DNA of 64,000 bases from a virus (IMGVR_UViG_3300021255_000108:1-64000), one strand, 5' to 3'. Shown: positions 2,374 to 10,302, numbered from the stretch's first letter. Numbers and translations are program-made. The notes: generated from the letters alone by a model not told the origin.

Positions 2374-2438
2374 GGAAAGAGTAGCTCAGTTGGTAGAGCG
2401 TTAAGCCTTAGCTTAAGGTCTCTGGTTCGAGTCCAGAC
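2374..2438 (+). tRNA. tRNA-like element / probable pseudo-tRNA (D-arm gctcagttggtagagc and T-arm tctggttcgagtccaga intact; anticodon arm collapses to a 6-bp stem with a 4-nt loop; no 3' acceptor strand)
   Basis: the 3' side abuts the second copy of the 70-nt promoter repeat, which replaces the acceptor 3' strand. Confidence 0.25.
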
Positions 2439-2508
2439 TAAAAATTGTGACTTGAATTTTTCTAAAAAATATAATATAATATATATGTAAGGTTGAGAGA
2501 GAAAAGGA
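2439..2508 (+). repeat. 70-nt direct repeat copy 2 (promoter plus leader unit)
   Basis: matches 1211-1280. Confidence 0.7.
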
Positions 2509-2657
2509 GAAAGAAAATATGCTGGATGGCTACATTACAGATGTTTGTCTTGAAGAGATTTATCGGGATCTTGATGAAATTGAATGGCAACTTGTAGTGG
2601 ACTCTTGGTCTGAAGCAACTTACTCCTCACAACTTGACGATTAACGTCAAGTCTTAT

Positions 2658-2732
2658 GGCTCAATCTTCTAGTGGTAGGAAGCCTGACTCTCAATCAGGT
2701 AAGGGTAGGTTCGAATCCTCCTTGAGTCACCA
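2658..2732 (+). tRNA. tRNA with anticodon CUC (Glu-type), CCA encoded
   Basis: acceptor ggctcaa/ttgagtc (two G-U), anticodon stem cctga/tcagg, loop ctctcaa, T-loop ttcgaat, 3' CCA. Confidence 0.5.
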
Positions 2733-3379
2733 TCGTCGGTTTGAAGACGTAAAACTCAAACACACCGATAACACGGATTTAGCACTTCAACTACCACCGG
2801 CATCATTGAATTAGAGAAGTCAATTTAAGTGATCCAATAAGATGATGATATGTGGCTAGCGGAAATCGGTATATAAAGAAGCGAAGTAAAGTGCGCCAAT
2901 TGCGACCTGAGATAAGGTGGTGTGGGTGAAAGCAAACCCACGATACGCTCCCGTGTAGCTAGCGGGCCAACGCAGTATAAGGTAAGTAAAGTCTGTTAAA
3001 ACCTTTAATTCACAGACCGTCGGCCATCGTGAGGTTGGGGTTGCAACCTGATAGCAAATTATTCCTCCTTAACCTATGTGCGTGCTACCCATAAGGTAAC
3101 ACAATAATCATGGGTTAGTTGGGACCGTATGCGGCAACGGGGTATAAAGACGCATTGCGCAAGCAGAGATTGCCCATTGGGATCCTCACTGCGAGTGGCA
3201 TTAATACTCAAAAAAGTAATTCTCCCAATTCCGTGGCTCCTGGATATAGAGCAGTCGGATCACGAAGTGAAAATCTTCGGTAAGAACAAATAAACCATCC
3301 ATTGCGCGCAAGGGTTTGTTGGTTTTCCTCCTTATACGCGGGTAAGGAAAAAATCTCCCATTTGAAAAAATTAAAAAAA

Positions 3380-3397
3380 TTTGATATAATATATATG
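3380..3397 (+). promoter_or_regulatory. extended -10 promoter (tTGaTATAATatatatg)
   Basis: consensus motif 20 nt upstream of the RBS of ORF 3417. Confidence 0.5.
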
Positions 3398-3416
3398 TAA
3401 GATGAGGTGAGGTCCG

Positions 3417-3605
3417 ATGTCTCTTGACAAAGCGATTAAATCTGGTAAAGAACATAGGAAACCTTATCGCAAATCAAAAAGAATTGATGCAAGTTGTCGG
3501 AATCACGGAAATTGTCCTTATTGTAAACAAAATCGTTTACATAAGTTTCGTGATGACAAAGGTCAAAATATGTTAGAAGAATTTAAAAACGTAGAAGAAG
3601 AATAA
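3417..3605 (+). CDS. small highly basic protein (62 aa) with a C-x-H-x2-C-x2-C cluster
   Basis: ORF with RBS gaggtgagg; K/R-rich, CRNHGNCPYC. Confidence 0.4.
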   Translation: MSLDKAIKSGKEHRKPYRKSKRIDASCRNHGNCPYCKQNRLHKFRDDKGQNMLEEFKNVEEE

Positions 3606-3608
3606 TAT

Positions 3609-3684
3609 TGCAGACAGGACACGCGGTCAAGTCACGAGGCTCATAACCTTCGGGGACTGGGTTCGACTCCCAGGTCTGCCACCA
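3609..3684 (+). tRNA. tRNA anticodon CAU (Met or lysidine-Ile2 type), CCA encoded
   Basis: acceptor gcagac/gtctgc with unpaired 1:72, anticodon loop containing CAT (loop may be 8 nt), T-arm ctggg-ttcgact-cccag, 3' ACCA. Confidence 0.4.
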
Positions 3685-4287
3685 AGCGCATCACTCACCT
3701 GCGCTATATAAATGGGTAAGTCGTGGATAAGCGCCGAATCGTCATTGGTGCCAGGGTTAAAGTTCTGTTATATTCATCGGGAGTTCGATTCTCCCCAGTG
3801 CTCTGGTGAGGATGGTATGAAGAATTTCTTGGACGCAAGATAGCCTCGCTCAAAGGCGGCCACCGGAGAGTGATTAAGTCGAGAGGGCGACATTAAACAT
3901 CCCGAGTCCATTCTTAGAAATGGTAAACCGCACATCGTTCGCGGTATATAAGTAAGCGGTGTCGGCAAGCAGGGCCAAACTGCTACAGGCTTGGTAATCA
4001 GGCAAGCCCTCAAACGTACGTAGTCGTAGGCAGGGAAGCGCAATAATGCCCTGACGTATCGCGGTCACGAAAGCCATTAAGTGCTAATGGATACGACAAA
4101 ATTTAGCTGAAAAACAAGAAGGCAGGGAAAATGGATGGGTAGTCCCGAACAGCTCTTAGGGTAGCTCCCTAAACTGGCAAATGAAGCGGCTTCATCTACC
4201 GCTCTTGTCACACAGTGTAGGCTAACTGGATACATGACCCAGTATAAAAAGGTGTCGCGCTGATAGACCGCAAGTTCGCAATAGTCT

Positions 4288-4373
4288 ATTATTCTATGCT
4301 CGGGTCGAATAAAGGCAAGTTCGCCGGCCCTTCAAGCCGGAAATGTAGGGTTCAAGTCCCACCCTGAGTACCA
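4288..4373 (+). tRNA. tRNA anticodon UUC (Glu-type), CCA encoded
   Basis: acceptor gctcggg/cctgagt (two G-U), D-stem gaat/gttc, anticodon stem ccggc/gccgg with loop ccttcaa (C33 unusual), weak T-stem. Confidence 0.35.
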
Positions 4374-4382
4374 TATATATAC

Positions 4383-4460
4383 GTCCTGTTAGTTCAGCCA
4401 GGTCTAGAATATAGCGCTGTCACCGCTAAGATCACGGGTCCGAATCCCGTACAGGACGCC
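4383..4460 (+). tRNA. tRNA-Asp (GUC)
   Basis: acceptor gtcctgt/acaggac, anticodon stem tagcg/cgcta with loop ctgtcac, T-arm acggg-tccgaat-cccgt, GCCA 3' end. Confidence 0.65.
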
Positions 4461-4468
4461 ATTTTATA

Positions 4469-4543
4469 GAGGATGTGGTGTAATGGTAACATGACTGCTT
4501 TGGGAGCAGTAGTAGCGGTTCAAGTCCGACATCTTCTACCATT
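4469..4543 (+). tRNA. tRNA-Pro (UGG)
   Basis: acceptor gaggatg/catcttc (one G-U), D-stem gtgt/acat, anticodon stem actgc/gcagt with loop tttggga (G37); T-stem only 3 bp. Confidence 0.5.
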
Positions 4544-4939
4544 CAACCCCATAAAGCCTGAATTAACAGGATATGACTGGCCGGTTGAGGTCCGGCGGTA
4601 CGTCTGGTGTGGACTTGTTGAAACATCGGGACGTGCGTCTCGTGAGCGACGACAGCAGGGGTGAGGCTTAGATTTGTGCCAACAATAGTCGAGTTACAAA
4701 CAAATCAATAGACCGTTACAGCTAAATTTTTGGTTAGACAAGCAAATTCTGAAAAAATTTTCTTTACGGGTTCGATCCCCGAAGCGGTCTAGATTCCTTG
4801 CCAACCATGCGGAATAGCGGGTTCAAGGCAAAAAACATGCGGTCTAGCTAGACGCAACGATGGCTAGTTTGGGGTTTTATGCCACGCTCTTTAGGCAGCG
4901 CAACCCGCTATGACGAGATCTTAGCACGCTTGCCTATAT

Positions 4940-5013
4940 GCGCCATTCGTATAATGGTAGTATCACTGCCTTCCAAGCAGTATGTGCGGGTTCAACTCCC
5001 ACATGGCGCTCCA
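4940..5013 (+). tRNA. tRNA-Gly (UCC), CCA encoded
   Basis: acceptor gcgccat/atggcgc, anticodon stem actgc/gcagt with loop cttccaa, T-arm gcggg-ttcaact-cccac. Confidence 0.65.
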
Positions 5014-5140
5014 TTTAAAGACCTGTCAGCAATCTTTCTTATTGCATTTTGGAGCACGAGGTTCCAGGTTCGACCCCTGGGTTGGGGACCCTCCCCAACT
5101 AGCTCAATGGTAGAGCGCGTATTAGCGGGTCTTGTATTTT

Positions 5141-5216
5141 GGCCCTATAGCTCAGTCGGTAGAGCATGCGGCTGTTAACCGCAGTGTCGTAGGTTCGAAC
5201 CCTACTGGGGCCGCCA
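5141..5216 (+). tRNA. tRNA-Asn (GUU), CCA encoded
   Basis: acceptor ggcccta/tggggcc, anticodon stem tgcgg/ccgca with loop ctgttaa, T-arm gtagg-ttcgaac-cctac. Confidence 0.7.
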
Positions 5217-5304
5217 TTCACGATAGCAAATAAGTGAATAAACGTATGTGCGGCTGGCCAACCTCAAGGCTATTATTTTAAAATAATAAGGAGAACTTGA
5301 CTTT

Positions 5305-5916
5305 ATGGATTTTGGTTCTTGGAATGTTGACATTCACATTGGGAGCAATATGCCCCAGAAAATCGCCACTGCGATGTCTGAACTGGAAGGAACTCTTGTT
5401 GGTGCTGAATATACTCCTATTGCCTATCTCGGTTCTCAGGTTGTAAATGGTACTAATCACGCAGTACTTGCGGAGCAGACAATTGTTACAGGTCGTGACA
5501 CACACAATGTTGTGGTAATGATTTTTAATGAAAAGCCCAATGACACAGTTGCTACTCTTGTGAGTATTGAACGGGTTGTTGAGGGTGGAATGCCACTCGG
5601 TGGAACTACCGTAGATGTACATACTGATATTCCAACAGACGCAATGGAAGTATGGAATGATGCTTTTATGGGATTTGTTGGTTCTAAGGTAGAACCTTTC
5701 GCGCTAATTGGCACACAGGTTGTTAATGGTATTAATTACATCTTTGTTGCTGAAGTTACTTCTGTGACCCGTGAACCTGTTAAGGAAGTTGCTATCGTTA
5801 CTGTTAATAACAGGACTAAGCAGGTAACCTTTATGAACGCACTCGAAAATAAGCATCAGGCTTCTCTTGGATATGCTTTCACTTGGTTGAAGAAACCGCT
5901 GGGCGAGTGGCCCTAA
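5305..5916 (+). CDS. hypothetical protein with two tandem homologous ~90-aa domains (203 aa)
   Basis: ORF with RBS aaggagaa; internal repeat GSQVVNGTNHAVLAEQTIVTGRD / GTQVVNGINYIFVAEVTSVTRE; GC-richer than neighbouring genes. Confidence 0.55.
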   Translation: MDFGSWNVDIHIGSNMPQKIATAMSELEGTLVGAEYTPIAYLGSQVVNGTNHAVLAEQTIVTGRDTHNVVVMIFNEKPNDTVATLVSIERVVEGGMPLGGTTVDVHTDIPTDAMEVWNDAFMGFVGSKVEPFALIGTQVVNGINYIFVAEVTSVTREPVKEVAIVTVNNRTKQVTFMNALENKHQASLGYAFTWLKKPLGEWP

Positions 5917-5948
5917 CTCTTAATGAGCAGATACGTCTGCTCTTATTT

Positions 5949-6035
5949 AGAGAGGTAGCATAGTGGCTTAATGCAGCGGCCTTGAAAACCGCCGATCTTT
6001 AAGGTCCGTGGGTTCAAATCCCACCCTCTCCGCCA
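5949..6035 (+). tRNA. tRNA-Ser (UGA), type II, CCA encoded
   Basis: long variable arm, anticodon loop cttgaaa, T-arm gtggg-ttcaaat-cccac, acceptor agagagg/cctctcc, discriminator G. Confidence 0.55.
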
Positions 6036-6658
6036 AGAGTTGTTATTTATCTCTGTCTAAAAAATAACCGTAGGACGAGGCTAAGGTGGAAAGAAATCCA
6101 TGACACAAACTTAGCGTATAACGTTAGACCCAGGTATGTTAAGGTTGCAGGTATGGGAAAACTGCGTAAAATGTATAATGCCTTATGTTAGTGCCTCATG
6201 AATCAATGGTTTCTTTAGCTCATCATAATAGCAGAGGTGTGGTATAATTAGCCACAGGTTGACACCTAAAATACTTAGTGCGCTTCCATATGGGGCAAAC
6301 GCCATATGGGCAAACGTTTAACTGTACGCAATTATTCTAGATGGCGCACTTAATACAGTATTTGTGCGTAGACCCGTATTAAACGGCGAGCAAATCCCGT
6401 TTGAAAAAACGAGAATCAGCAAAGAGATATATAACAAGATATAGTTTTAATACAACTATGGGAGCAATGCGGGGTGCCTGGGTACCAAAGGAATGACAAA
6501 AGATCCCCTGCCCAACCGGTGTAGCTGGGCCGTATAAACAGCGCAGGGATAAGAGCTAATGACTCTGTTCTGCCTAATAACTTTAGGTAGTTAGTGATCT
6601 GTAAAATCACCGTTAGAGGCTGAGAGGCTTAGGTTTAATAAATTTTGAGGTGAAAATA

Positions 6659-6850
6659 ATGGTTGATACTCCTGTGTATGAATATGAGTTTCCAAGTTAT
6701 GAGCCTGCGTGGTGGGGCATTTATCCGCCATTTCGTCCACAGACTGAATATCGTACCGGTTGGGTATGCCCTAAATGCGGCGCGGTAATGTCTCCTGATA
6801 CTCAATATTGTGTTAATTGTACTCAAATCAATTTTACAGTTTCTTGTTGA
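6659..6850 (+). CDS. zinc-ribbon protein (63 aa; CPKCG...CVNC)
   Basis: ATG 8 nt after GAGG; two CxxC pairs. Confidence 0.4.
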   Translation: MVDTPVYEYEFPSYEPAWWGIYPPFRPQTEYRTGWVCPKCGAVMSPDTQYCVNCTQINFTVSC

Positions 6851-6863
6851 TTTTATTAAAAAA

Positions 6864-6886
6864 TTATAATATAATATATATATAAA
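6864..6886 (+). promoter_or_regulatory. extended -10 promoter upstream of tRNA-Ser(GCU)
   Basis: aaattATAATATAATatatat motif 7 nt before the tRNA 5' end. Confidence 0.45.
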
Positions 6887-6892
6887 AGATGA

Positions 6893-6980
6893 GCGGTATT
6901 GGCTGAGTGGTTTAAAGCGCGGGCCTGCTAAGCTCGTGATCTGTAAAGATCCCAAGGTTCAAATCCTTGATATCGCGCCA
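6893..6980 (+). tRNA. tRNA-Ser (GCU), type II, CCA encoded
   Basis: acceptor gcggtat/atatcgc, anticodon stem cgggc/gctcg with loop ctgctaa, variable arm hairpin gatc-tgtaaa-gatc, T-arm caagg-ttcaaat-ccttg. Confidence 0.65.
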
Positions 6981-6991
6981 AGGAGAATGAT

Positions 6992-7204
6992 ATGTTTTAT
7001 TATAAAATTACTTATTGTGATCAATATAAAGATCAAGAATATACTCATTATGGAATTGTAATTGCTTCAAGTTACAGTGAAGCAGTAGAAAAGTTGGTAA
7101 ATGATTATGGGCCTGAAATTGAGTCTATAACCGTTGATGAAGAAATTGATACAGTCATAACTAAAGACGAGATAGATTTAGGAATAAAATTTTTAGATAA
7201 ATGA
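6992..7204 (+). CDS. hypothetical protein (70 aa)
   Basis: RBS aaggagaatgatATG directly after the tRNA. Confidence 0.4.
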   Translation: MFYYKITYCDQYKDQEYTHYGIVIASSYSEAVEKLVNDYGPEIESITVDEEIDTVITKDEIDLGIKFLDK

Positions 7205-7695
7205 TGGAATATAAACAATTAATTATTGCGCGCAAGGATCTTCAAATGCATCCTGGTAAATTGGCGGCGCAAGTATCTCATGCGTCAATGGCATTTCTAA
7301 CATCACAGATAAAGAAAACAGCAATGCCATTGACTAATTATATGTTGACTAATTTTGATGAGCCTGTTCAAAAGGTAATAAATCCTTTTGATATTAGTAA
7401 GTATGAAGCAAATATTGTCTTAGATAAAGATACTTATGAAAAATGGATTAATGGCTCTTTTACAAAAATTGTATGTGAAGCACGCAATAAAAATCATCTT
7501 TTAAGAGCAATAGAATATGCTAAATCAGTAGGATTATATACAGAAGGATATGATTACTTTCTTATTCGAGATAATTGTTTAACAGATTTAGTGCCAGAAG
7601 ATGAAGATGGTAGAACTTTAACTTGTATTGGTTTTAGACCATTGCCATTTACGCTTAGTCAAGTAATTTCTCGACATTATCAATTATACCGATAA
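7201..7695 (+). CDS. peptidyl-tRNA hydrolase, PTH2 family
   Basis: motif HPGKLAAQVSHASMAF matches the PTH2 GK-AAQ-HA signature; overlaps the upstream stop (ATGA). Confidence 0.6.
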   Translation: MMEYKQLIIARKDLQMHPGKLAAQVSHASMAFLTSQIKKTAMPLTNYMLTNFDEPVQKVINPFDISKYEANIVLDKDTYEKWINGSFTKIVCEARNKNHLLRAIEYAKSVGLYTEGYDYFLIRDNCLTDLVPEDEDGRTLTCIGFRPLPFTLSQVISRHYQLYR

Positions 7696-7714
7696 GTTGA
7701 AAATAGTAAAAAAA

Positions 7715-7725
7715 TTTGTTATAAT
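7715..7725 (+). promoter_or_regulatory. extended -10 promoter (tTGtTATAAT)
   Basis: consensus motif followed by RBS aggagg. Confidence 0.45.
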
Positions 7726-7740
7726 ATAGGAGGAAATGAG

Positions 7741-7968
7741 ATGTTAGTTAAATATTCTGTAAAATATATTAATGATAATTATCAACATAATGATCACGAA
7801 GATGAACCAGCTTCTTATGAAGATGAAGGCATCGTTTCCGCCGCAGATTATAATGAATGTGTCGCACGATTAAATGAGCGTTATGGTGAAGAATGTGTTT
7901 TTTGGTTTTCATTCTGTCCTTTGGTAGATGTAATTACTAAATCTGAAATGGATGATGTATGGGATTAA
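7741..7968 (+). CDS. hypothetical acidic protein (75 aa)
   Basis: ORF with RBS. Confidence 0.4.
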   Translation: MLVKYSVKYINDNYQHNDHEDEPASYEDEGIVSAADYNECVARLNERYGEECVFWFSFCPLVDVITKSEMDDVWD

Positions 7969-7969
7969 T

Positions 7970-8045
7970 GGGGCGGTAGTCCAACGGCAGAGACAGAGGA
8001 CTTAAAATCCTTCCAGTGAGGGTTCGAATCCCTCTCGCCCTACCA
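7970..8045 (+). tRNA. tRNA with Leu anticodon UAA, type I (short variable arm), CCA encoded
   Basis: acceptor ggggcgg/tcgccct, D-arm gtcc-aacggcaga-gac, anticodon stem gagga/tcctt with loop cttaaaa, variable ccagt, T-arm gaggg-ttcgaat-ccctc, discriminator A. Confidence 0.55.
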
Positions 8046-8154
8046 GCTGGTGAAGCGATAACACCGTCTAAAAAAACACTTAACACAGGTAAAGGTGTTA
8101 AATAATTTTTAATGCGGTAAGTAAAGGCCGCGAGCATAAGGAGAGTAGATATTT

Positions 8155-8454
8155 ATGCGTTTTATATCTGATAAGACCGGAAAGGTTTATACTACACAAG
8201 AGGATTGTATCGCCGCTGAAAAGATTTTTGATGCGGAACAGCAAAAGAAAGAACTTGCTAAGAAACAGAAGGAAGAAACACGCGCTAAACGGGCTAAAGA
8301 AGTTGAGGATGCGTATACGGCTTACGTAGAGATGCGCAAGAATTATAATGATCTTGTAGCTAAATTCGTAAAAGACTATGGTTCATTCCATATGACACTA
8401 AAGAATGATGACAATGGCGTATTCAAAACTTTATTTGATAACTTTTGGTTCTAA
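8155..8454 (+). CDS. hypothetical protein, K/E-rich coiled coil (99 aa)
   Basis: ORF with RBS aaggagag. Confidence 0.45.
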   Translation: MRFISDKTGKVYTTQEDCIAAEKIFDAEQQKKELAKKQKEETRAKRAKEVEDAYTAYVEMRKNYNDLVAKFVKDYGSFHMTLKNDDNGVFKTLFDNFWF

Positions 8455-8495
8455 TAGTTCTTTGGCGCTCTATTAAATTAGAACGCCATTTATAT

Positions 8496-8570
8496 GCGGA
8501 CGTGGTGTAATGGTAACATGCCGGTCTCCAAAACCGTGCGATTTAGGTTCAAATCCTAACGGTCGTGCCA
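8496..8570 (+). tRNA. tRNA-Trp (CCA), CCA encoded
   Basis: acceptor gcggacg/cggtcgt (one A-G mismatch), D-stem gtgt/acat, anticodon stem ccggt/accgt with loop ctccaaa, T-arm ttagg-ttcaaat-cctaa; preceded by hairpin ggcgctcta-ttaaa-ttagaacgcc. Confidence 0.55.
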
Positions 8571-8897
8571 GGGGAGCTATTACGCTCAAATATTAGTATC
8601 ATATGCTACGGTATGGAGAGCAAAACAGTCGTTTGCAAGGATGATAGTGTAGGCACTCCCCACCATTTTAAAGAAGGAATTAAATGTGTAGAGTTTAGGA
8701 TAGGTAAATGGACCTATTGAATCAATTAAATTTGCCATCCATCCAAAATGTAAAAATATAATTATGTATTCGTTGTCTGAAACTTAGATCATAGAACATC
8801 CAGAGGATTAGCGTTGTATTTATTGGCTGACTTGTCCAGTTTGTCACGAATCTTTTGAAGTTAATAAAAGACCTTTAGATTGAAAAATTTAAAAATT

Positions 8898-8908
8898 TTT
8901 GATATAAT
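8898..8908 (+). promoter_or_regulatory. extended -10 promoter (tTGaTATAAT)
   Basis: consensus motif upstream of RBS aagggagaaaag. Confidence 0.45.
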
Positions 8909-8939
8909 ATATATACAAAAAGTAAGGGAGAAAAGATTT

Positions 8940-9164
8940 ATGAAGATGATGGAAATGCCACAGTCAGAAGGATATACAATTTATACTTGGGGTGACGTTA
9001 CCAAAGCGCATAGATTAAAAATGAAATATCATCATTTTACTTGCCCTTATTGTGATTGTGTTTTTGACGCAGATAAAGATCATTATGAATATCATAGTAA
9101 TAGATATGATGAAGAATGGTATACTACCATATGCCCTTGTTGTAAAAATGAATTTTCTTCTTAG
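8940..9164 (+). CDS. Cys-rich small protein (putative zinc finger)
   Basis: CPYCDC...CPCC; ATG 8940 after a strong RBS (the track ORF starts earlier at 8880). Confidence 0.4.
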   Translation: MKMMEMPQSEGYTIYTWGDVTKAHRLKMKYHHFTCPYCDCVFDADKDHYEYHSNRYDEEWYTTICPCCKNEFSS

Positions 9165-9170
9165 GATTAT

Positions 9171-9247
9171 GCCGTTGTAGCTCAAATAGGAAGAGCAGCT
9201 GATTTGTAATCAGCAGGTTGTTGGTTCGATTCCAATCGGCGGCTCCA
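9171..9247 (+). tRNA. tRNA-Thr (UGU), CCA encoded
   Basis: acceptor gccgttg/cggcggc, anticodon stem gctga/tcagc with loop tttgtaa, T-arm gttgg-ttcgatt-ccaat. Confidence 0.65.
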
Positions 9248-9317
9248 AGCCCCACACAGCAAACTACAAGTAAGCATATTTCTGTTAAAAATATAAGCTA
9301 TTATTGGGACTAGTTTT

Positions 9318-9500
9318 ATGAAAAAATGTTGTGATAATTGTAAATATTATGAATGGTATTATGATAAATGTAATAAATATAATTGCGAAGTAGATGGCCG
9401 TAGTGTTTGTAATGGTTATGAAAGTACGACGAAATGGTTAAATATGGAACAAAGTATTTATTTTACAGATTATAATCCAACTATTGAACTTGCCGACTAG
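9318..9500 (+). CDS. Cys-rich small protein (60 aa)
   Basis: CCDNCKYYEWYYDKCNKYNC motif; the 3' end overlaps tRNA-Gln, and the terminal TAG would be read through 6 codons to a TGA. Confidence 0.35.
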   Translation: MKKCCDNCKYYEWYYDKCNKYNCEVDGRSVCNGYESTTKWLNMEQSIYFTDYNPTIELAD

Positions 9501-9564
9501 TCTAACGGCAGGACATGAGACTTTGACTCTCAGCGTGATGGTTCGATTCCATCGTCGGCAGCCA
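9491..9564 (+). tRNA. tRNA-Gln (UUG), CCA encoded
   Basis: acceptor tgccgac/gtcggca with U1-A72 and G73 (Gln identity features), anticodon stem tgaga/tctca with loop ctttgac, T-arm gatgg-ttcgatt-ccatc. Confidence 0.65.
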
Positions 9565-9683
9565 GATTGTTGTCCGGCCGGCAACCCAGTGGATGGATTG
9601 TGACGCATCCCGTGCTACTACTGCGAGACGGTTCACGCTTAGGCTTTGCATGCGCACCACGGCCGATGAAGGTAGCACATTAT

Positions 9684-9759
9684 GCTCCATTAGCCCAACG
9701 GCAGAGGCAATGCGCTCAAAACGCATACAGTAAGGGTTCAAATCCCTTGTGGAGTACCA
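9684..9759 (+). tRNA. tRNA with Leu anticodon CAA, type I, CCA encoded
   Basis: acceptor gctccat/gtggagt, D-arm gccc-aacggcaga-ggc, anticodon stem atgcg/cgcat with loop ctcaaaa, variable acagt, T-arm aaggg-ttcaaat-ccctt, discriminator A. Confidence 0.55.
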
Positions 9760-9765
9760 TTTTAT

Positions 9766-9841
9766 GCTCCATTAGTCCAACGGCAGAGACGACTGGCTTA
9801 GAACCAGTGTAGTGAGGGTTCGAATCCCTTGTGGAGTACCA
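9766..9841 (+). tRNA. tRNA with Leu anticodon UAG, type I, CCA encoded
   Basis: same acceptor as 9684 (paralogue), anticodon stem actgg/ccagt with loop cttagaa, variable gtagt, T-arm gaggg-ttcgaat-ccctt. Confidence 0.55.
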
Positions 9842-10183
9842 GAAGGTACTGCTTTCCTGAAGAAATACTTCAAGCAGCGGAGAAGCTAAAACTTCGTAAG
9901 ATAGGGGCACGGTCAACTTAGAGCGGTGAGAACGAGATATCAAGAACCGCAAGTTCGTCGTGATTAAATGAGGGAACACTCGGATCTACCTATTAAATAG
10001 CTTAGAATGACGGACAAGGCTAAGGCGTATGATATTTTGAGGTTGTGGGAGATATTAGTAACCAAATGAGCTATTGACGGATAGCAAGACTCTGAAACAG
10101 GTACGCCTGCTCTGCTAATATTATTTGTACCACTAAATTAAAATAAACAGGACGGTAGGACGCGAGTGGTCATTCTAATGATT

Positions 10184-10270
10184 ATTGGGGAGTAGTTCAA
10201 TCGGCAGAACACCGGTCTCTAAAACCGTGATATCCCTCTGACGGAGGTAGTTGTGGGTTCGAGTCCCACC
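10184..10270 (+). tRNA. suppressor tRNA, anticodon CUA (reads UAG), CCA encoded, unusually long (~24 nt) variable region
   Basis: acceptor tggggag/ctcccta (U1-A72, G73), D-arm gttc-aatcggca-gaac, anticodon stem ccggt/accgt (identical to tRNA-Trp) with loop ctCTAaa, variable region gatatccctctgacggaggtagtt containing a cctc/gagg helix, T-arm gtggg-ttcgagt-cccac. Confidence 0.7.
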
Positions 10271-10302
10271 TCCCTAGCCATTATTATATTTAGGAAACGA
10301 TT

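Follow-up and report, generated by a model that had tools for sequence, protein, structure and literature searches.

Separable structured RNA modules make up a GC-rich non-coding block in the tRNA array of an uncultured phage

Locus and coding potential

The 64,000-nucleotide (nt) DNA stretch IMGVR_UViG_3300021255_000108:1-64000, hereafter the window, derives from an uncultured phage with an overall GC content of about 30%. Positions 2380-10280 hold 16 tRNA genes, identified with ARAGORN and the Rfam tRNA model and located on the + strand throughout, including a suppressor tRNA with anticodon CUA (10186-10280). When TAG is read as sense, many genes become longer and frames of at least 200 codons increase from 25 to 36, many of which contain one to nine in-frame TAGs, and TAG looks to be recoded in at least part of this genome. 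Near the start of the array, a GC-rich block extends from the end of a tRNA-Glu gene towards a promoter and a small protein gene. We compared this block with related loci (designated by L numbers below), which are IMG/VR phage contigs, many of them 100-200 kb long, and metagenome-assembled genome (MAG) contigs whose sources include sheep, goat and yak gut. The comparison resolves the block into separable RNA modules, two of which, M1 and M2, contain helices with compensatory substitutions (Table 1).

The initial annotation had called the block non-coding, richer in GC than the coding DNA and bounded by a tRNA and a promoter, all of which agrees with our findings. GC content is 0.42-0.50 over 2701-3300, as against 0.27-0.38 in the coding DNA at 1201-2500. 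The longest stop-to-stop frame on the + strand that overlaps the block has 61 codons with standard stops and 64, 70 or 110 codons when TAG, TGA or TAA, respectively, is read through; a recoded open reading frame (ORF), which had been named as a possible objection, spans the block with no single stop read through. Neither the 84-amino-acid (aa) minus-strand ORF at 3201-3455 nor five other block ORFs had a Pfam match, and the 84-aa ORF and four of those five had no PHROGs match. With a maximum of 64 codons and these negative Pfam and PHROGs searches, the block does not qualify as a TAG-recoded protein gene. The block is non-coding.

Between 2480 and 3362 the + strand contains no promoter-like or terminator-like consensus, and the block is thus probably transcribed from the promoter at 2452. 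That promoter would drive a 41-aa ORF, the tRNA-Glu and the RNA block as a single transcript. The promoter at 3362-3390 belongs to the next unit, bounding the RNA block at its 3' side and lying outside it. Two candidate origins of the block were rejected: it is not a paralogue of the window's other GC-rich blocks, for which BLAST gave matches of 10-17 nt only, nor did it arise by tandem or direct repetition, its sole internal repeat being the short submotif GGUAUA(UA)AAG (D15).

Table 1. Features of the block and its surroundings, in window coordinates.
Feature	Position	Strand	Basis or remark
Promoter cassette copies	2112-2140, 2452-2480, 3362-3390, 6847-6885, 7697-7735, 8880-8918		repeat listing and consensus scan
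tRNA-like gene, truncated match	2380-2439	+	Rfam tRNA model, 37.4 bits
Promoter-like TTGAAT-17-TATAAT	2452-2480	+	closest upstream site; repeated promoter family D2
tRNA-Glu(CUC)	2658-2732	+	ARAGORN; Rfam tRNA model, 55.4 bits; directly 5' of block
P0, spacer with small optional hairpin	2733-2759	+	between tRNA 3' end and M1
M1, pseudoknotted module, about 140 nt	2760-2901	+	covariance model R1, 112.5 bits, E = 6e-20
M1 P1	2764-2769 / 2865-2870	+	comparative alignment
M1 conserved single strand UAACACGGAUUU, 12 nt	2769-2780	+	between P1 and P2
M1 P2	2781-2787 / 2889-2894	+	crosses P1
M1 P3 (CCAC/GUGG)	2794-2797 / 2852-2855	+	comparative alignment
M1 variable hairpin	2802-2846	+	length differs widely among copies; inside P3 with internal loop
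M1 conserved A-rich single strand AUAUAAAGAAGCGAAGUAA, 19 nt	2871-2889	+	between P1' and P2'
Linker domain a	2898-2967	+	hairpins ACCU-GAGAUA-AGGU, GUGGGU-GAAAGCAA-ACCCAC and CCCG/CGGG; read from sequence
Hairpin GUGGGU-GAAAGCAA-ACCCAC	2922-2941	+	8-nt loop; first hairpin of the initial annotation
Linker domain b	2968-3060	+	predicted hairpins GUCUGU...ACAGAC and AGGUUG-GGGUUG-CAACCU; minimum free energy and centroid folds
M2, multi-helix domain, about 240 nt	3061-3300	+	nhmmer 3061-3356, E = 3e-85
M2 3' part	3160-3323	+	covariance model R2, 172.5 bits
M2 helices	3082-3089/3095-3102; 3130-3134/3155-3159; 3163-3166/3189-3192; 3173-3175/3179-3181	+	RNAalifold
M2 helices, continued	3193-3197/3205-3209; 3230-3233/3256-3259; 3237-3239/3249-3251; 3263-3267/3275-3279	+	RNAalifold
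M2 candidate long-range helix UUGGGA/UCCCAA	3119-3124 / 3223-3228	+	candidate pairing
M2 helix 10, CGAAG-UGAAAAU-CUUCG	3263-3279	+	7-nt loop; second hairpin of the initial annotation
Perfect 10-nt palindrome UUGCGCGCAA	3302-3311	+	directly 5' of GGGUUUGU; after M2 (after M1 in L158)
Tail: GGGUUUGUUGG, then hairpin CCUUA/UAAGG	3312-3356; hairpin 3330-3334 / 3343-3347	+	sequence conservation
Promoter TTGAAA-17-TATAAT, TG upstream	3362-3390	+	sigma-70-like; 11/12 consensus matches; family D2
62-aa protein gene	3417-3605	+	small, basic; CxxxxxCxxC motif
tRNA-like gene, anticodon CAU	3609-3681	+	Rfam tRNA model, 32.8 bits; resembles L117 tRNA-Met
tRNA-like gene	4298-4370	+	Rfam tRNA model, 44.4 bits

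M1 is a conserved pseudoknot associated with tRNA genes

When loci were fetched through their neighboring proteins and compared by BLAST and nhmmer, only the first 130 nt of the block proved to be kept (92% in L001), and a three-way alignment contained the compensatory series ACCGAU/AUCGGU, ACCGUU/AACGGU and AGCGUU/AACGCU. An exact-match search of IMG/VR with a 44-mer from the block gave no match, and a pattern for the 5' strand of M1 matched 78 IMG/VR stretches. Matches to the covariance model R1 were aligned for 69 copies (55 distinct sequences when the window, L001 and L081 are included). Among the gut MAG contigs with the pattern, 13 of 16 were confirmed as M1, one of them bearing a second, diverged copy.

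Along M1 the order of elements is P1, UAACACGGAUUU, P2, AAACUA, P3, a loop and hairpin, P3', about 11 nt ending in GCGGAAA, P1', AUAUAAAGAAGCGAAGUAA and P2'. Since P1 and P2 cross, the fold is a pseudoknot. We define the motif by the P1/P2 pseudoknot together with P3, a junction (J1/2) of the form UA(A)CAYRRAUU and a 3' strand AUA..AAGAAGCGAAGUAA, and the window copy conforms to this definition, with all three helices present.

Covariation in related phages, which had been suggested as a check of the initial annotation, is strong for the helices of both M1 and M2. Standard pairs occupy 93.1% of the M1 alignment cells, compared with 30-49% when the partners are slid by one to three columns. Cells altered on both sides number 141, compared with 8-31 for slid partners and a mean of 38.7 for shuffled alignments, none of 500 shuffles reaching 141. 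The inner P2 helix is paired in 100% of cases, and three of its five positions show four pair types. Pair counts on a MAFFT alignment were similar, and the presence of G-U pairs assigns the structure to the + strand. Judged from these comparisons, the predicted M1 pseudoknot is shown to be under selection on that strand.

The 26 nt upstream of P1 also fold at lower energy than shuffled sequences (mean -3.86 versus -2.05 kcal/mol; Wilcoxon p = 1.7e-5; 47 distinct M1 copies), with -3 kcal/mol or less in 26 of the 47 and -3.8 kcal/mol in the window. In about half of the M1 copies, a small extra hairpin in this P0 region fills the gap to the upstream tRNA. As a separate observation, the 5' half of M1 is partly duplicated in L148 (3847-4040, minus strand), where AACACGGAUUUAGCAYUUAAACUACCACCGAU is present twice; this suggests recombination within the motif.

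M1, which occurs in about 75 IMG/VR phage contigs and 13 gut MAG contigs, is strictly associated with tRNA arrays in gut and rumen phages. Every tRNA lies on the same strand as M1 (52 of 52 loci), the module starts less than 100 nt from a tRNA 3' end in 29 of 48 copies (typically 22-42 nt) and it ends less than 20 nt before the next tRNA in 10 of 48. The identities of the flanking tRNAs are diverse, and a search with R1 with its filters off found a single M1 in the 64-kb window and no second one, M2 included. One copy per array and varied tRNA neighbors argue that M1 is a discrete RNA gene and not a general junction signal.

By analogy, M1 could be a self-cleaving ribozyme or a cis-acting processing element that matures the neighboring tRNAs. 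It follows tRNA 3' ends by 4-42 nt in many loci and sometimes precedes the next tRNA by 5-15 nt, and it combines crossing helices with many conserved unpaired nucleotides. Theta ribozymes, which resemble the hepatitis delta virus (HDV) ribozyme and likewise contain crossing helices, are located beside tRNAs in TAG-recoded gut phages, a setting matched here by the suppressor tRNA and the TAG recoding (PMC10879173). However, neither an HDV-like nor any other ribozyme family matched at E<=10, and the helix order and junction lengths of M1 do not fit the HDV-like fold. That fold is a nested double pseudoknot in which P3 runs straight into the P1 3' strand, with a catalytic C in J4/2 and cleavage at the 5' end of P1; in M1, P1 and P2 do cross, but there are 11 nt between P3 and the P1 3' strand, a variable extension in P3 rather than P4, and a 12-nt J1/2. 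A processing element also sits poorly with one copy per array, varied tRNA neighbors and an upstream distance that is not fixed. We regard a catalytic or processing role in cis as improbable.

Linker hairpins, M2, the palindrome and the tail

Behind M1, the middle 160 nt of the block are a lineage-specific linker with predicted hairpins. Domain a, possibly closed by an AUUGCG/CGCAGU helix, aligns in part to L171, where CCAG-AGAU-CUGG stands for ACCU-GAGAUA-AGGU, and was not found in L186, L188 or L194. Domain b is near-identical in L194 and not present in L186, L188 or L171, the last of which carries another insert, closed by a helix of its own. The initial annotation had cited two hairpins with GNRA-type loops; both hairpins are present, one in domain a and the other in M2, with loops of 8 and 7 nt, which are thus not GNRA tetraloops.

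L171 realigns with the window from about 3064 to 3345 at 77% identity, and this part corresponds to M2 and the sequence behind it. A metagenome scan with the most conserved stretch of the M2 part yielded nine loci, with four distinct new sequences. Distant copies were detected with nhmmer and R2 in L137, L147, L122 and L165, together with a weak one in L117. Patterns for the tail and the M2 core recovered L158 and L171 from IMG/VR and otherwise only the chance matches L174 and L175.

RNAalifold predicted 12 helices for M2 and the tail from nine sequences. Pairs fill 92.5% of the M2 cells, compared with 38-43% for slid partners, and 27 of 49 pairs are altered on both sides, compared with 4-11 for slid partners, as counted on the same nine sequences from which the structure was derived. 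Helix 10 illustrates the pattern: its strands read CACGG/CCGUG, UGCGG/CCGCA, CUCAG/CUGGG and UCUGU/ACAGA in relatives, and the UGAAAnU loop is kept. These counts show the predicted M2 helices to be under selection on the + strand. An AUCCU/AGGGU helix closing M2, seen with seven sequences, was lost when two distant homologs were added and is unconfirmed.

The submotif GGUAUA(UA)AAG is common to the two modules M1 and M2 and to the non-coding block that comes next. In all three, AUA(UA)AAG..GCG stands behind a helix, which hints at a shared structural building block.

At the palindrome site, relatives carry CUUGCGCAAG (L137), CUUGUACAAG (L191), AAUGCAUU (L147) and ACUUCGAAGU (L165), each of which is self-complementary. 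With five versions, all perfect, it is self-complementarity that is kept and not the sequence. Taken as 12-mers, the palindromes are predicted not to fold by themselves (0.0 kcal/mol), and their predicted self-duplexes range from -7.7 to -18.5 kcal/mol. The palindrome is a possible self-association (dimerization) element, which the duplex predictions offer as a lead only. The dimerization initiation site (DIS) of HIV-1, with its GCGCGC loop, is likewise a short palindromic dimerization site in which self-complementarity is kept rather than sequence, although a hairpin-loop placement and a dimer are features of the DIS and would be hypothetical for the palindrome of the block.

The tail is kept in L171, L186, L188 and L158, where it stands directly after M1. 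Its helices 11 and 12 covary in relatives, and the version in the window has diverged. Within the RNA, CCUCCUUA is present twice (3064-3071 and 3327-3334) and is identical to the anti-Shine-Dalgarno sequence with which bacterial 16S rRNA ends. CCUCC-type sequences occur in the tail of all relatives, with a GGAGG-like arm as the predicted partner. This likeness may be fortuitous, or it may bear on the binding of ribosomes or mRNA.

The tail has a bearing on whether the block might be a cis-regulatory leader (a riboswitch or attenuator) of a downstream gene: in L158 and L171 it contains CUCCUU, the complement of AAGGAG, and is followed at about 25 nt by a ribosome-binding site and ORF. An ORF also follows some M1 copies, and M1 is riboswitch-like in size and conservation. 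However, the downstream feature is inconsistent: it may be a tRNA or an ORF, and in the window it is a strong promoter of another unit. In ten loci only 5-15 nt separate the end of P2 from a tRNA, which leaves no room for an expression platform, and no terminator consensus was found. A leader function is therefore very improbable.

Relation to known RNA families

The initial annotation had placed the block in a GOLLD- or ROOL-like setting, and its phage tRNA context is indeed comparable; the families it named for a check (among them GOLLD, ROOL, introns, RNase P and tmRNA) drew no match in Rfam. At gathering scores, Rfam 15 returned only tRNAs over the whole window, and for the block, with relaxed filters and E<=10, only a spurious minus-strand microRNA match. 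As a positive control, the same scan of related phages detected ROOL in L081 (333 bits; 7047-7649) and L146 (317 bits; 2084-2675), cow-rumen-3 in L001, L137 and L158, and cow-rumen-4 in L001 and L158, with positions 9187-9332 and 5082-5145 of L001 being cow-rumen RNA motifs within its tRNA array. The block thus falls outside ROOL, GOLLD, introns, RNase P, tmRNA and the catalogued ribozymes and riboswitches. ROOL, cow-rumen-3 and cow-rumen-4 occupy the tRNA arrays of M1-carrying phages. The presence of several unrelated structured RNAs in those arrays indicates that such RNAs travel together with phage tRNAs.

ROOL (RF03087) is the closest counterpart in setting. Like the block, it is found in rumen and gut phage tRNA islands, is co-oriented with the tRNAs, measures about 580 nt (about 590-620 nt for positions 2733-3356) and contains many helices and pseudoknots, and it co-occurs with M1 in L081 and L146. 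It shares no detectable sequence or structure homology with the block, which matched its model neither at the gathering score of 99.1 bits nor at E<=10, and the block's modules also occur separately, whereas the published description of ROOL is of a single conserved unit (PMC5737381). GOLLD (RF01998) occurs in phages and prophages near tRNAs and, like the block, has two parts that differ in conservation, together with a variable linker (PMC12286853). It is larger, its model drew no match at either the gathering score or E<=10, and oligomerization has been shown for GOLLD and is hypothesized for the block. ROOL and GOLLD are reported to form RNA-only cages; in one bacterial strain the abundance of ROOL is like that of rRNA, and phage-induced lysis is accompanied by a rise in GOLLD expression (PMC12286853).

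Cow-rumen-3 (RF03083) and cow-rumen-4 (RF02948) are small structured RNAs from rumen metagenomes that share the tRNA arrays of this phage group, but they have other folds and sequences and neither matches the block. The tRNA cluster of phage T4 encodes small stable RNAs, species 1 and 2 (rnaC and rnaD), that are matured from a tRNA precursor; their setting is similar, in an unrelated phage group. A literature search for motifs of this kind found papers on ROOL, GOLLD and theta ribozymes and no prior description, the full 224-motif list of Weinberg 2017 lying outside that search. The M1 and M2 folds appear to be new, although their kind, complex RNAs in phage tRNA islands, is known; an earlier mention outside Rfam may exist.

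The same scans bear on whether the block is a decayed mobile element, such as the remnant of a self-splicing intron that the initial annotation had considered, or an insertion, or a gene in an alternative code. Relatives do contain intron-interrupted tRNAs, the interval from M1 to the palindrome is about 400 bases longer in the window than in L158, and the phage reads TAG as sense. Nevertheless, no group I or II or other intron family matched, the upstream tRNA-Glu is complete and a promoter and gene lie downstream, with no flanking tRNA halves. Nor is there a long frame under any single stop reassignment or a protein family match, and the substitutions in the helices are compensatory, the signature of selection for RNA structure. 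Nothing supports an intron remnant, and decay of any such element is scarcely credible.

Modularity and proposed mechanism

The modules occur in several combinations. M1 lacks an adjacent M2 in about 50 distinct sequences and most loci, and M2 is present without M1 in the available L191 sequence. In L137, L147, L122 and L165, M2 precedes M1 by 0.4-2 kb, and in L186 and L188 it comes after M1, from which about 17 nt separate it. Between M1 and M2, L194 contains the window's 2968-3060 segment alone, to which the window adds 2898-2967, and in L158 M1 is joined straight to the last 45 nt of the block (palindrome and tail). The block is thus a mosaic of separable, co-oriented modules on the tRNA strand. 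Of the large structured RNA originally proposed, the structure stands, with helices that covary in relatives, and a single indivisible 680-nt unit is doubtful, since the modules are separable.

It is nonetheless conceivable that the stretch from M1 to the tail (about 590 nt) is one indivisible ornate RNA whose copies are bridged through the palindrome into a homo-oligomer. Five lineages keep M1, M2, palindrome and tail in this order (the window, L171, L186, L188 and L194, the sequence of the last being cut off ahead of the palindrome and tail); the size equals that of ROOL, the tRNA-island context matches both ROOL and GOLLD, and the division into two domains, one more conserved than the other, with a variable linker recalls GOLLD (PMC12286853). 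The palindrome, moreover, is kept through compensatory change, and its self-duplexes are predicted to be stable. Against this stand the many M1 copies with no M2 nearby, the M2 copies that lack M1 or lie far upstream of it, an M1-M2 linker that ranges from 17 to about 190 nt, and the failure to find a covarying pair between M1 and M2. We consider a single indivisible RNA unlikely.

We favor, with a probability of about 0.6, the reading that the block encodes modular, trans-acting structured RNAs, with independently folding domains, that are co-transcribed with tRNAs. That it encodes structured non-coding RNA is near certain; co-transcription, release through tRNA processing, a role in trans and self-association are inferred. 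The RNA would arise within the phage tRNA precursor transcript, and host tRNA-processing enzymes would set its end at the 3' end of the upstream tRNA. In relatives with a tRNA 5-15 nt downstream, RNase P would set the 3' boundary. Ends set in this way by tRNA 3' processing and RNase P are suggested by the many phages in which tRNA genes flank the RNA, and the stable RNAs of the T4 tRNA cluster are a precedent. Once released, the compact and probably stable RNA would have its role in trans in the infected cell, by analogy with proposals for ROOL and GOLLD, and the palindrome may pair two RNA copies.

Several observations weigh against this reading of modular trans-acting RNAs or narrow its basis. 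The folding energy of the + strand is no lower than that of shuffled sequences (z = -0.05, compared with -1.73 for the minus strand), and the case for structure depends on comparison with relatives. That comparison has its own limits. The M1 alignments were seeded by exact-match patterns, which inflates the invariance of some single strands: a pattern for the 3' half recovered 11 more loci with the 5' strand variants UAAUACGG, UAACACGA, UACACAG and UAACAUGG, and part of the apparent invariance is therefore a collection effect. Several of the nine M2 sequences, which supplied the structure and the pair counts alike, are close relatives. Comparative support for the linker domains is almost nil, one hairpin with a GAGAU loop appearing to covary with L171. 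The distance between the upstream tRNA and M1 varies from 4 to more than 7000 nt, and excision by tRNA processing is thus not universal. Finally, the long palindrome is not present in the weaker M2-like copies of L122 and L117, and the palindrome could instead be a DNA-level, protein-binding site.

Neighborhood of the block and other conserved stretches

Relatives of the 62-aa protein encoded behind the block occur in at least 126 IMG/VR stretches; it has no Pfam domain on record and no PHROGs match. The nearest tRNA 3' of the block begins at 3609 and is one of three tRNA-like genes that the Rfam tRNA model detected and ARAGORN missed. A peptidyl-tRNA hydrolase gene (Pfam PTH2, 164 aa) lies inside the tRNA array at 7201-7695. 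A near-alike promoter cassette, composed of TTGAAA, an A/T-rich 17-nt spacer, TATAAT and TATATATGTAAG, is repeated ahead of many small genes and tRNA units.

In GenBank phage records neither the block nor the first 25 kb had a relative, and the only matches were to tRNAs. Contigs from ENA, JGI and Logan assemblies carry an identical 62-aa gene, and the longer ones match the block as well, several of them over its full length; sources include SHIW14-1 / SAMN02144230 samples, which account for several contigs, and run SRR873598. In the near-identical copies of the window phage (L176-L185) spacing is constant, with no presence/absence polymorphism.

A second GC-rich, ORF-free block of about 615 nt occupies 3682-4297 and is probably another set of structured RNA modules. 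Positions 4023-4222 match L171 and L158, L191 has the 4105-4210 part, and 4221-4292 is kept in seven loci, the window copy ending just before a tRNA. This block, M2 and positions 7130-7180 of L001 have a common submotif, CGCGGUAUAUAAGUAAGCGG..GGCAAGCAG. Further non-coding stretches between tRNAs (4542-4666, 4821-5040, 5011-5141 and 6056-6243) are 76-97% conserved in other phages. The 4821-4929 module adjoins cow-rumen-3 in L001, L137 and L158, and the window itself has no cow-rumen-3 match.

Some tRNA genes of relatives contain inserts of about 50-90 nt (L171 2504-2667; L117 12696-12841; L158 533-652; L001 about 9725-9860). The two halves of the window's tRNA-Asn (5140-5174 and 5175-5213) match L171 2503-2537 and 2629-2667, which indicates a 91-nt intron in the anticodon loop of the L171 gene.

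Implications

Bacterial and phage RNAs with complex folds are rare, and rRNA, RNase P, introns, OLE, GOLLD and ROOL each show unusual biochemistry or assemblies. The block adds two well-supported folds to the niche of ROOL and GOLLD, in the same phage group. A bolder proposal, which we hold to be doubtful, is that M1 and M2 are two undescribed complex RNA classes that became fused in the window lineage into a ROOL-sized RNA self-associating through its covarying palindrome, a third, structurally unrelated solution to the ROOL/GOLLD nanocage task, or else that M1 is a new ribozyme or ligand-binding fold. The modularity of the system (M1 alone, M2 alone and the two fused) is useful for experiments, and the palindrome can be broken (UUGCGCGCAA to UUGCGAAAAA) and restored, a simple mutational test of self-association. 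That ROOL, cow-rumen-3 and cow-rumen-4 co-occur with these modules in rumen phages that are rich in tRNAs and recoded at TAG suggests a set of RNA genes that accompanies phage tRNAs, and such a travelling set provides a comparative handle on the purpose of these RNAs.

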